This document shows positions 11,022 to 34,557 of a DNA stretch of 64,000 bases, in pieces; position 1 is the stretch's first letter, and each line of letters begins with the position of its first letter. The notes under the pieces were generated by a model. It did not search any database, was not told where the DNA came from, and saw nothing but the letters and a program-made list of their open reading frames with translations. Source of the stretch: an uncultured Methanosarcinales archaeon (GTDB taxonomy: Archaea > Nanobdellota > Nanobdellia > Woesearchaeales > GW2011-AR9). Made by a program: the position numbers and the translations under genes. The DNA lies in assembly GCA_964344235.1 (NCBI GenBank), contig CAYFMJ010000001.1:128001-192000 (forward strand), written 5' to 3'.

Positions 11022-14000
11022 ATGGTGGAGAAAAAAAGAGGTTTAGTTTTAGTAGTCTTTGTTGCTTTTCTAGTAGTGATGAGCGTGGGTGTTTTAGGTG
11101 TTCCTGACAAGAATACAGATGCTTTTCCAACCATTGGACACCGGGCCGATTTAGGTTATGAATATGATCAGGGTTGTGGTTCTTATGATGTTGACGATTG
11201 CCCGCAAGGTGACACTTACAAGCTAGATGAAGATCACAGTACCTGTTCTGCATCAGGAAGCGATTTGTCTCCTTTATTCGATGCCTGTAAAATTTTTTTT
11301 GTCGATAAAGATGAGGGAAATGATGATGGGGGGTTTGGGCTAGCAGATGAGGGTTATATTCTAGACTCAGTTGGCTACGAAAAACTTGGCCTTCACAGCT
11401 ATGAGAAAGTCTGTGGGCAAGAAGGAGACCATGATAATGATGGGGTTGAGGGGCTAAAAGGAGCGAAGTTTAAAGCAGCTGATAATACTGCATATATTTG
11501 TGGAAATAACCTGGGAGAACCAAATAAATGGTATAAATGTACTTCAGAGACGCTTGACACTGTAACATGGGCAAACGGTGACTTATATAATTGTACTTTC
11601 AGTGCTAGTACTGGCTTTCCAACTTGGAAAAACGAAGGAGGGGATACGGACTTTGATACTTTTGCTCAAGAGGTAGATTGTAAAGATAACCCCCCGAGTG
11701 GATCCTGTTTAAACCTGGCACCAGAAGATTGTGCAAGCTCTCCTGAAAATTATGAATGCCCACAGTGTATTAACCCTGATGCGCCTGAGGTATGTGGAGA
11801 TGGCAAAAACAATGATTGCAATGAAGCGACTTCTGATAACTGTCATGATAATCAGGCAGCATGTGAGGCACTTGACACGGCAGTTGGTTGGAATATTCAT
11901 GATGAGAAATATGCTTGGCAACAAACGGGAAGCGAGGGAGCCGGTTTCTGTTGTGGATTCAGTGGAAGTGGTGATGGTAATGTAGGGGAGGTGTCGGAGA
12001 GTATTGGTGGCACTAACAAGCTATGTGTGAATAAAGAATATACCACAACAAACGGAGAGATTTCATCAAGTGAGACCGAAGGAGTTGAGTGTAGTGGATC
12101 TGGGTGGTGTTTAGTGAGCGCAGTTGTTGGGTCTAAGTTTCAGATATACACTATTGCAGAACCGGAAAAAGAACCTTATGATGTTGTTTCCAATGGAGAT
12201 AATTGGTATGAATGTAGTAGCAGCTACCATGAACCTCTGCTACCGGAAGATACAGGTGTAAGGACAAAGGCTAATGCGTTTTACTGCTTCGATGAGGGAA
12301 ATCATTGGAGTTGGGCTGAATGTCCTTTAGGGGAAGAGGGTGAAGTTGAAAGCGAGAATAGCGGTACGACTAAAATTAGGCACAAAGGAGATGGATTATA
12401 TCAGCTGTTTCCAACAAATGATAAAAACCAGTTTGGAGTTTTGGTAGATGCAAAGGATCCAATTTACACAAGTTTGTATAGTGAGGATTTCTTGTTAGAT
12501 TTTAGCGGATATAACCAATTGAATTTTATGATTCAGTTTCTGAGTGAAGTAACCCTGCCAGCTGATGTTAAGGTGCAAATTTATGGTTCTGATGATGAGC
12601 TGAAATGGCAAGGGAATGTTCTTGGCTTTAGTACTAATAATCCTGTGCTAGTTGCAGATACGTTCTTTCATGTGCAAGTTCCCATTGCTCCGTTTAAAGA
12701 TGTTGAGAAAGTTCTGATAGAGAGTATTGGCGACTTCAATCATATTGAGGTGAAGAATATTTATATGAGTGTCCAGGGAGAGCAACCCTACTTGTGTTCG
12801 GCAAAGCAATCAAACCAACCACAACAACCAGCATGGTTGACGAATGCAGATGACATTATTGAAAATACATTGATTACTGGAGAAAATATTTGTAATGAGT
12901 TGTATGGTGGCTGGTTAGGAGATGAAGTAGATGATGTCGAAAGAAGGTGTTGTGGTGATGATGTGGGGGAATATTATGCTGGCCCAGGAAAGAACGGTTG
13001 TTGGAATTCTGAAGTTGTTGTAGGTGGGGGAACAATGATGAATGCTCAAGTTGAGGTTACGTCACAATATTCAACAGTTGGAGAGGTTGAGGGTGTAGCA
13101 GTGAGAACTGTTACATTTGAGTGGGACTATGCAACGCCTTCAGAGGATCCGGTGACTCTTACGGATGCTGAGTGTAAGCAATATACAAAAGAGCACAATT
13201 GTCCTATTGGCTGTAAGTGGGTAGCTGATTACGGGGTTGGATGTATTGCATTAAATGCAGATGCGATTATTGCTGCACCAACTTCAGGCGTTAATACGCA
13301 AGAAGCTTCAATTGAGATTGAGTATGATGGCTCTACTGTTTCGCCGAAGTCTATCACACTGAAAGAATTGGGGTTTGAGGTTGAGGGTGTTGAATCAGGA
13401 GAGTTATCTATAAACACGGGAATCGAACTCTTCATTGCTGGCTCTTTTCAAGATCACGGTGATGAATTCGAGTTTTTCTCTGAGAGCGATTATATTTTAG
13501 GAAATAATCAGTTTGAAGTTGGCGATTTTAAAGATATTAGCTTTTCCTTTGTTCATGATGATAACTACTATGAAAATAATAAAGAAACGGTGAAGAAGCT
13601 TGTTGTTGGTACTCAACCAGAGGAAATGATGAAAACGTATTCGTGCTCTCAAGCGGCGTGTACGTTCCCAATTCCGGGGTTTCCACCGTATACTATCAGT
13701 AACCCGTTCCCTGATTTATATGAGATATATTTTGTTGATGGACCAGGAATTGATGATAGACATCCAATTGATAAGAATGGAAAGACGTTTGATCAGGTAG
13801 GGAATGTTGAAGTCACAAAGGTTGCACAGCAAGTTGTGCTTGTTAATAGTGATACAGAGCATCAATTTTATGGTTGTGCGCCTTCGCAAACGTTAATTAA
13901 CAGTATTCCTACAGAAGATCAAGATAGTTTCACTGCATTAAGCCATTGCGCGGTGAAAGCAGATAGGTTTTGTTCATTTAGTTACACGGAGGATGGCGTG

Positions 14001-33809: not shown

Positions 33810-34557
33810 GAAGGGGAGTATCCTGTACTGGATTATGATTGCGGCGCTTATAGCGAGTGCTTTTTTGGTGGCAGTGGTCTTTAAGACAGACTTCACAGCG
33901 CAGCCGAAAGGTGTGTGGCAAGAAAGTTATTTAGGAGTAGTGCAGGAAACAGAGAAAGAGTTGTTATTGATGGACTCTGCAGTGTATGAAGTGAGTAGGG
34001 AAGCTGCTGGAGAAGTTATTGTAGATATTGGTGTTAATGGTTTAGGGTGTGGTGTCGTTGATGGCATTCCTGTGTTGAAATTCTCCGGTTGTTTAGAGAA
34101 TATTGATGAGAAGTTTGTTGATGTATTTAGTACGAAGGTTTTGGGGTATTCAGAAATACTTATTGATGGAAATGATGTTGTAGGAATTAGCGAGGAGAAG
34201 AAGTTCATTGGCTCAGCATTGGAAACAATCCCAACGGAAGAAAGTGGTCTGGGTGCACCGGATTATGATTTCTTTTTAACGAAGCCGTTTTACGTTAGCT
34301 ATAAATATCAACCGCATTTTAGAATTGCGTTGGATGAACGGATTGTTGAACTAGAGAGTGTAGTGAAGACTGCAGATGATTTAGTGTTTTTCTGCCATAA
34401 GGAAGAGAAATTACGGGCATGCCTGGATGATTTGAAGCCAGAAGAGTGGCGATATGGGCCGTGCCATGCGCCAGATTATGGTGATGCGGGCAGAGAAGTG
34501 GCGTTCTGTGTTGGGTTAGGAGATGAAGATTTCTCATTTGCAGTGGATTTTTCGTGA
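33799..34557 (+). CDS. Pilin-like class III signal-peptide protein
   Basis: Start moved to ATG 33799: MMNKKG|SILYWIMIAALIASAFLVAVVF. Confidence 0.72.
   Translation: MMNKKGSILYWIMIAALIASAFLVAVVFKTDFTAQPKGVWQESYLGVVQETEKELLLMDSAVYEVSREAAGEVIVDIGVNGLGCGVVDGIPVLKFSGCLENIDEKFVDVFSTKVLGYSEILIDGNDVVGISEEKKFIGSALETIPTEESGLGAPDYDFFLTKPFYVSYKYQPHFRIALDERIVELESVVKTADDLVFFCHKEEKLRACLDDLKPEEWRYGPCHAPDYGDAGREVAFCVGLGDEDFSFAVDFS

Follow-up and report, generated by a model that had tools for sequence, protein, structure and literature searches.

What does a row of genes for small pilin-like and giant Cys-rich proteins build if no assembly machinery is encoded next to it? The question is raised by a locus of 23.5 kb (positions 11022-34557, genes g01-g20) within a stretch of 64,000 nucleotides of contig CAYFMJ010000001.1 (positions 128,001 to 192,000 of the forward strand, assembly GCA_964344235.1), which was analysed as a whole and is called the window here. 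The genome carrying the locus, that of a tiny DPANN archaeon of the Woesearchaeota type, has a size of 1.19 Mb and is 96% complete, and homologues of the locus proteins carry the source labels Candidatus Woesearchaeota or Nanoarchaeota. Members of the Woesearchaeota and related lineages occur in abundance, are uncultivated, possess reduced genomes, and are thought to depend on partner cells. The locus codes for about 15 pilin-like and four large Cys-rich surface proteins. At a probability of about 0.6, it holds the structural genes of an archaeal type IV filament (T4F) that is specific to the lineage, and its product would most likely be a pilus-like surface structure using machinery encoded elsewhere in the genome.

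Pilin-like signals and conserved gene order

The locus consists of 20 consecutive plus-strand genes, which mostly overlap in ATGA or TAATG junctions, as had been recognized in an original prediction made from the nucleotide sequence, and all open reading frames (ORFs) were confirmed at the coordinates given in Table 1. Fifteen of the genes (g02, g05-g10, g12, and g14-g20, as judged by eye and from the orthologs) code for proteins with a short basic leader ending in [KR][GA], which is followed by an uncharged hydrophobic helix of about 20 residues. The 17 leader-type proteins counted originally were slightly too many, because the orthologs of g13 lack the motif and g11, which would be the sixteenth member, is a doubtful gene. 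A mechanical scan, defining the motif as [KR][GA] near the N-terminus followed by an uncharged hydrophobic 18-mer, retrieved 13 of 19 ORFs of the locus and 39 of 1374 ORFs of the genome (hypergeometric P ~2e-17). Orthologs of five other genera and three families likewise keep the motif, g13 being the exception. The homologues of g06 contain Gly or Ala at position -1 in 62 of 63 and Gln at position +1 in 61 of 63 cases, and the corresponding values for the homologues of g02 are 73 and 74 of 74, despite overall identities of just 30-50%; among the pilin-like proteins of the locus itself, Gln at +1 is present in only 6/15. Since a plain membrane anchor needs no such near-invariant pattern, these positions argue for a prepilin peptidase site. 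The proposal of class III signals on the small proteins has thus gained ground, with the -1/+1 pattern conserved in 60-77 homologues, and their assignment as type IV pilin-like proteins is supported at the sequence level.

Similarity among the 20 proteins, as detected by BLASTP, is confined to the N-domains of g03 and g04, and profile-profile comparison shows that the pilin-like set shares only the N-terminal 30-85 residues, apart from the paralogues g09, g10, and g15 (hhalign values of 99% and 98% for g09 with g10 and g15, respectively). The heads therefore appear to be mutually unrelated, as had been predicted, but the variability expected for them is not observed: each head has a positional ortholog in the relatives, and they are evidently conserved gene by gene. 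Protein g13 shows no profile similarity to the pilin-like set, and its orthologs from genomes G010, G017, and G021 carry plain signal anchors without [KR][GA]. The whole yield of the Pfam and NCBIfam scans for the locus consists of CarboxypepD_reg and fn3 (plus weak immunoglobulin (Ig)-like matches) in g04 and a weak TSP_3 match in g15; no Pfam match was obtained for g01 and g02.

Three other genera of the family contain the whole row from g01 to g20 in collinear arrangement, with identities of 25-60%. Its core reaches beyond the family and was found in other families, across the order, and also in further orders of the class. The closed genome G040 even shows the same flanks, with RNase P p30 upstream and RPA and RadA downstream. 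Within 15 loci of relatives, the set g05-g06-g07-g08 was found in all and is contiguous in 14 (three genes are inserted in G144), preceded by a g04-type giant in 13. Of 251 good genomes representing the phylum, among them members of other orders of the class, 215 were matched by a g06 profile, mostly in single copy; this tally contains two unpublished genomes (G260 and G261), without which it amounts to 213 of 249. Across the order, conservation is highest for the N-terminal 40 residues of g09 (45-55% identity), and orthologs of g01 are located ahead of g02 in G010, G017, G021, G040, G031, and others. As to the fast-evolving g19, no ortholog was found by BLAST, and an ORF of 81-172 amino acids occupies the same slot in most relatives that have kept g18 and g20.

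The two giants had been reported to begin with KKRG followed by a hydrophobic segment, which is correct for the sequences as such, but does not make a pilin of g04. Because of their Sec-like signals, C-terminal membrane helices, and basic cytoplasmic tails, g03 and g04 are evidently type I membrane proteins rather than pilins, and their assignment as class III pilins was rejected. g03 does not contain KRG, and its mature N-domain is 43% identical to that of g04 (BLASTP). The g04 ectodomain contains two CarboxypepD_reg domains and one fn3 domain according to Pfam. The leader of g01 fits a Sec signal and a class III site alike, and its type is therefore ambiguous. The genome also contains two genes for archaeal signal peptidase I.

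Structural models were calculated with AlphaFold2 for g06 and g02, and both contain the long N-terminal helix expected of pilins (alpha1), in agreement with the original prediction. The g06 model (63-sequence alignment) reached a mean predicted local distance difference test (pLDDT) score of 92.7 and shows a helix of residues 4-59, a beta-rich domain, and a C-terminal four-helix bundle, for which VIA-align retrieved generic four-helix-bundle matches only (Z up to 9.5, residues 265-357). The model of g02 (77 sequences, pLDDT 85.8) consists of a helix of residues 3-74, an alpha/beta domain, two Ig-like domains (residues ~340-618), and a Cys-rich C-terminal part. Its Ig-like part resembles SraP (VIA Z score of 8.5, root-mean-square deviation of 2.1 over 85 residues) as well as Ig repeats of RTX, SiiE, and S-layer proteins (Foldseek E ~3e-6), matching the generic Ig/cadherin-like adhesin type. 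Solved pilins were not retrieved structurally with either model, and an ESM Atlas look-up of g02 returned only hypothetical clusters of Woesearchaeota. The N-terminal ~100 residues of g02 recur in four differently tailed proteins of this genome and in one to nine per relative, and such an N-module on varied tails is the pattern of modular pilins. The three further proteins of this type are encoded at C6:29332-35003 (796 amino acids), C7:10897-11817 (306 amino acids), and C7:23671-25659 (662 amino acids). Downstream of the g02-like gene on contig C6, a 1094-amino acid protein is encoded whose N-terminus carries a hydrophobic signal-like segment, an arrangement reminiscent of the g01/g02 pair.

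Assembly machinery and genomic setting

Genes for a T2SSE ATPase, a T2SSF platform, or an A24 peptidase are missing from the window, as noted before, and all matches of the genome lie on other contigs. The search elsewhere in the genome that had been advised did locate the ATPase and a probable platform on contig C2 and an A24 peptidase on contig C12. The ATPase is the only one of the PilB/FlaI family in the genome and has afGspE (9e-29), CpaF, and FlaI as its best PDB matches. Its scores are far below every NCBIfam equivalog cut-off (e.g., 126 bits compared with the FlaI cut-off of 550), and it carries an N-terminal extension of ~240 amino acids. The peptidase is likewise the sole one of its kind, and roughly half of its candidate substrates in the genome fall in the locus described here. 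Archaellin (PF01917) was not matched at E values up to 1 in the 96%-complete genome, and an archaellum was ruled out on this basis.

The putative platform is a protein with nine transmembrane (TM) helices, encoded 3 kb from the ATPase gene. Its ortholog group represents the top sub-threshold T2SSF match in genomes G000 (the genome analysed here), G010, G017, and G031 (E 0.003-1.6), and its nearest ESM Atlas clusters are those of GspF/T2SSF (0.97); a PDB profile search found nothing. The gene is placed within a few genes of the ATPase gene in G000, G040, and G017. In G031, the neighbour of the ATPase is a 27%-identical paralogue and the true ortholog is located ~18 kb away, and the top candidate of G010 maps to a different contig. 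Eight additional genomes of the order and class encode the protein at 44-52% identity, and two others at ~30%. We regard it as the candidate for a GspF-like platform.

As this machinery is the sole one of the pilus type in the genome and is co-conserved with the locus, the two may be linked. The three relatives checked within the family each contain exactly one ATPase and one peptidase, and G040 and G031 possess extra canonical systems in addition to the divergent one. Queries for ATPase, platform, and peptidase against the 15 loci of relatives yielded only one ATPase of canonical length and no peptidase. This 507-amino acid T2SSE-type ATPase is encoded in the G108 locus (L066/L067, oriented 1309-2832, minus strand), about ten genes upstream of the g02 ortholog and on the opposite strand. 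A second A24-like gene occurs in G031 (C11:94764-95795, L044:764-1795; 343 amino acids, TYTD and GAGD motifs) between the genes for RNase P p30 and the g01 ortholog, just outside the joined locus, and is the sole such case seen.

Further genes were noted next to the machinery. Adjoining the ATPase gene (C2:97448-100322, L069) are genes for two soluble proteins of 164 and 185 amino acids, the latter coiled-coil-like, and for three paralogous 5-TM proteins of ~190 amino acids. The same set adjoins the ATPase gene in G000, G010, G031, and G040. Pfam returned nothing for these five neighbours, which are possible unrecognized accessory parts of the machinery. Two pilin-like genes adjoin the A24 peptidase gene (C12:9897-11400), coding for proteins with MQNRG/A (183 amino acids) and RSKRG/S (~190 amino acids), which are alternative candidates for a major subunit.

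When the Met preceding each motif is taken as the start, the junctions between g01 and g20 comprise nine ATGA/GTGA overlaps, two TAATG junctions, five gaps of 1-8 nucleotides, and two longer overlaps. Just three larger gaps occur, with 143 nucleotides before g02, 67 before g04, and 218 before g09; the gap ahead of g04 (65-137 nucleotides) and that behind g08 are kept in most relatives. The promoter-like motif AACATTTATAAAC, probably representing a promoter of the TATA type from which near-leaderless transcripts would start, precedes g01 and g04 as a direct repeat, and a TTTATATA box with a GAGGTGA Shine-Dalgarno-like site is located between the second copy of a dispersed repeat and g09. From these gaps, motifs, and sites, there appear to be at least four transcription units, namely g01, g02-g03, g04-g08, and g09-g20.

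The dispersed repeat, which directly follows g01 and g08, has a core of 88% identity with a T6 tract and inverted ends of the ATATGTCCGC/GCGGACATAT type. Further copies are present in the genome at C1:387148-387211, C1:192269-192362 (just beyond the end of the window), C15:9801-9892, and C14:20952-20970, and none in the loci of relatives. An Rfam search over positions 10000-36000, including the repeat, gave no match. The repeat may represent either a terminator cassette or a dispersed element of small size. The flanks of the locus in the window are archaeal (Cdc6, MCM, RadA, RPA, eRF1, and RNase P p30). Elsewhere in the window, a phosphoenolpyruvate (PEP)-utilizing enzyme (PPDK_N, PEP-utilizers, PEP-utilizers_C) is encoded at 42333-45848 on the plus strand and is split by a LAGLIDADG intein (Pfam Intein_splicing, LAGLIDADG_3), and a 345-amino acid ORF without Pfam match lies at 54839-55876 on the minus strand between the genes for eRF1 and an ABC transporter.

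Table 1. Features of the pilin-like locus and of the putative assembly machinery. Positions without prefix refer to the window, those with prefix to other contigs of the genome; slashes mark the putative processing sites, aa stands for amino acids.
Feature	Size (aa)	Position	Strand	Properties
AACATTTATAAAC motif, copy 1		10982..11013	+	promoter-like, TATA-like box; ~30 nucleotides 5' of g01 start; direct repeat with 19679-19710
g01	1616	11022..15872	+	56 Cys; secreted, no membrane anchor; KKRG plus hydrophobic run of 18-20 aa ending in small residues
Dispersed repeat, copy 1		15874..15965	.	~70-90 nucleotides with T6 tract; directly 3' of g01 stop
g02	855	16016..18583	+	MKRG/Q; modular pilin-like adhesin
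g03	356	18580..19650	+	Sec-like signal (VLA/DS), Cys-rich N-domain, membrane helix ~195-215, basic cytoplasmic tail
AACATTTATAAAC motif, copy 2		19679..19710	+	promoter-like; ~30 nucleotides 5' of g04 start
g04	2061	19718..25903	+	79 Cys; Sec-like signal (VFA/ES), ectodomain of ~1850 aa, membrane helix ~1885-1905, basic tail of 155 aa
g05	169	25900..26409	+	pilin-like, TRG/M; N-terminal 85 residues profile-similar to g06; ortholog in 15/15 loci
g06	357	26406..27479	+	pilin-like, RNG/Q; mostly single copy
g07	165	27481..27978	+	pilin-like, KKG/Q; 36-59% identity to orthologs; in 15/15 loci
g08	163	27975..28466	+	pilin-like, KKG/Q; in 15/15 loci
Dispersed repeat, copy 2		28469..28620	.	carries insertion; directly 3' of g08 stop
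g09	117	28685..29038	+	small, pilin-like, KKG/Q; 4 Cys
g10	114	29041..29385	+	pilin-like, KQG/S; Cys-rich (10 Cys); paralogue of g09
g11	42	29382..29510	+	SRSG/R plus hydrophobic helix; doubtful gene, no ortholog detected
g12	47	29507..29650	+	headless pilin-like mini-protein, TRG/M; leader as in g05; 50-aa orthologs in G017 and G153
g13	372	29650..30768	+	Cys-rich; N-terminal signal anchor
g14	310	30746..31678	+	pilin-like, RKG/M; second hydrophobic stretch near residue 225
g15	87	31687..31950	+	pilin-like, KKG/Y; paralogue of g09/g10; weak thrombospondin type 3-like Asp-rich motif
g16	202	31950..32558	+	pilin-like, KRA/A
g17	144	32555..32989	+	pilin-like, KRG/T
g18	160	32986..33468	+	pilin-like, RKG/Q
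g19	112	33471..33809	+	pilin-like, KKG/D; fast-evolving, positional counterparts only
g20	252	33799..34557	+	pilin-like, KKG/S; end of locus, RPA gene next
PilB/FlaI-family (T2SSE) ATPase	764	C2:94477-96771		PF00437 at 53-54 bits; Walker A
Nine-TM protein	729	C2:89116-91305		no Pfam match, PF00482 not reached
A24 (prepilin) peptidase		C12:11592-12413		PF01478 at 48-52 bits; both catalytic Asp (D22 and GGGD80-83)

Proposed filament assembly and alternative readings

If the locus encodes a filament, its approximately 15 class III precursors would be inserted into the membrane, and their leaders would be cut by the only A24 peptidase after the conserved Gly or Ala. The PilB/FlaI-family ATPase and its GspF-like nine-TM partner would extract the subunits and polymerize them via their N-terminal helices. 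The likeliest bulk (major) subunits would be g09 and g10, because they are small, have the best-conserved N-termini across the order, and possess their own promoter-like site and Shine-Dalgarno-like sequence. By analogy with bacterial minor pilins, the g05-g08 quartet would be the likeliest priming or tip complex, g02 may serve as a pilin-anchored Ig-domain adhesin, and g01 (secreted) as well as g03 and g04 (membrane-anchored) may be associated Cys-rich surface partners. Such a structure might be used for attachment to a host.

Several results weigh against this reading. The pilin models of Pfam and NCBIfam (PF04021, PF07790, and PF01917) were not reached by any locus protein, and the g06 model gave no convincing PDB match to solved pilins with its head or its helix (best Foldseek E of 2e-3), structure prediction having covered 2/15 pilin-like proteins. 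The machinery is located on contigs other than that of the locus, and its probable platform is assigned from sub-threshold matches and a language-model look-alike. The phyletic profiles of locus and machinery do not discriminate, as the machinery is too universal: even genomes without a g06-profile match encode the nine-TM protein, with identities of 44-52%. Moreover, one-to-one conservation of 15 different subunits across the order resembles a fixed multi-protein complex more than a homopolymeric pilus.

This last point leads to the main rival explanation, which we hold to be rather unlikely, namely a short, envelope-embedded pseudopilus-like complex in which g05-g08 together with g09/g10 would form a stub anchoring, exporting, or displaying g01, g02, and g04, as in a type II secretion-like or S-layer-associated contact organelle. 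The one-to-one orthology suggests a fixed stoichiometry, and the distribution of the quartet and of the giant ahead of it, the preserved unit boundaries around g04-g08, and the position of the locus amid core housekeeping genes with conserved flanks all fit such a complex, as does the layout of g04, which is that of an archaeal surface-layer-type glycoprotein with a signal, a huge ectodomain, and a C-terminal anchor. On the other hand, g09 and g10 show features expected of abundant filament subunits, and we know of no secretion-type pseudopilus in archaea; short and long filaments are not separated by the present results. With a similarly low probability, the core (g04 and g05-g08, with g01 and g02) may represent a T4F-derived contact or transport organelle of fixed composition that is common to Woesearchaeales and related orders and is not an ordinary adhesive pilus. 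An archaeal counterpart of the type II secretion pseudopilus or a device by which these metabolically dependent cells would dock onto a partner cell and exploit it are conceivable forms of it.

Compared with these possibilities, it is much less probable that the N-termini are uncleaved signal anchors of type II membrane proteins of the cell coat, unconnected with any T4F. The missing matches to pilin family models would fit this explanation, two signal peptidase I genes are available, and g13 and the giants show that ordinary anchors and Sec signals do occur in the locus. Of the refutation foreseen originally, that the N-termini might turn out to be signal anchors, only the case of g13 has come true; it probably does not apply to the g06 and g02 families, in which the near-invariant Gly/Ala and Gln residues (63 and 74 homologues) would not be needed by an anchor. 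In addition, an intact A24 peptidase with about half of its candidate substrates encoded in the locus has been kept, and the modelled helices of g06 and g02 comprise 56 and 72 residues, far beyond a membrane span. Least probable of all are independent class III-signal surface proteins with their own binding or enzymatic roles, similar to the Sulfolobus bindosome and merely co-transcribed, which would agree with the mutually unrelated heads and with the known class III signals of archaeal non-pilin substrate-binding proteins (PMC4858521), but not with the absence of any head matching a binding-protein or enzyme family, with the strict collinearity and translational coupling across the order, which are typical of complexes, or with the small size of several members (47-117 amino acids), which leaves room for little beyond a helix and a small knob.

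Significance and comparison with known systems

The filament reading is relevant because nearly all members of the group possess the locus, which in this family would be served by the only pilus-type machinery of the genome. It provides a defined list of parts (about 15 pilin-like proteins, one apparently pilin-anchored Ig-domain adhesin, and three Cys-rich giants), none of them with a family annotation, which may be used as targets for metaproteomics, for labelling with antibodies or in cryo-electron tomography, and for structure prediction of complexes. It also indicates that most pilins of DPANN archaea escape the current T4F classifiers, which are based on pilin models of arCOG and Pfam. 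A description of this operon was not found in the literature, which contained general statements on DPANN pili only.

The closest known counterpart is T4F system 1, represented by the Epd pili of Methanococcus maripaludis. Loci of this type (clade 1) contain at least five minor pilins, two large adhesins, and major pilins of ~70 amino acids (Makarova, 2016; PMC4858521). A survey of 2026 reports system 1-type pilins for 1990 DPANN genomes and attributes them to most genomes of these archaea, with ATPase and platform genes adjacent to each other and the pilin genes scattered (PMC13705601). The shared features are the many proteins with class III signals, often with Gln at +1, the large adhesin-like proteins in the locus, the very small major pilins (here the candidates g09 and g10), and the separation of the pilin genes from those of the ATPase and the platform (here a candidate). 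In contrast to system 1, no locus protein matches PF04021/DUF361 (E up to 0.1-1), DUF2341 is absent from g01, g02, and g04, and the locus lacks a dedicated peptidase. Moreover, there is a single platform candidate of 729 amino acids with nine TM helices instead of two recognizable TadC genes, the ATPase is extended N-terminally by ~240 amino acids and scores below all equivalog cut-offs, and about twice the number of pilin-like genes is present in addition to the type I membrane giants.

The type IV pili of the Thermoproteales (clade 4, Pyrobaculum/Thermoproteus; clades 4B/D/E/G, PMC4858521) are comparable in the combination of two large proteins, an S-layer-like one anchored by a C-terminal membrane helix and a secreted adhesin-like one, with several diverse small minor pilins, nearly all components being rich in conserved cysteines. 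They belong to another phylum and hold their own ATPase and TadC genes, and the likeness is one of described architecture alone. The claim that the new locus is far richer than model loci holds only in part: many minor pilins accompanied by two large Cys-rich proteins had already been described for loci of clade 1 (system 1) and of the Thermoproteales (PMC4858521).

Two bacterial systems show partial parallels. By analogy, about four unrelated minor pilins, one of them large (g06, 357 amino acids), beside a large adhesin may correspond to the FimU-PilVWXE-PilY1 complex or to the GspH-I-J-K tip of type II secretion systems, in which the bulk subunit is likewise encoded separately. Unlike these priming complexes, g06 lacks sequence or fold similarity to solved minor pilins, and the signal is of the archaeal class III type without the Glu5 rule. 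The architecture of g02, a pilin N-module with bulky Ig-like adhesin domains, corresponds to that of modular pilins such as PilB of Streptococcus sanguinis (PMC8179133), from which g02 differs in being archaeal and much larger (855 amino acids), in having no vWA domain, and in its Cys-rich C-terminal part. The distinctness from characterized systems that had been expected for the locus was confirmed at the family level of Pfam and NCBIfam. As judged from its sequences, the locus would therefore represent an unannotated, lineage-wide T4F structural operon without family-level match to a characterized system, but of a kind already known, because of the loci described previously (PMC4858521) and the DPANN survey (PMC13705601).

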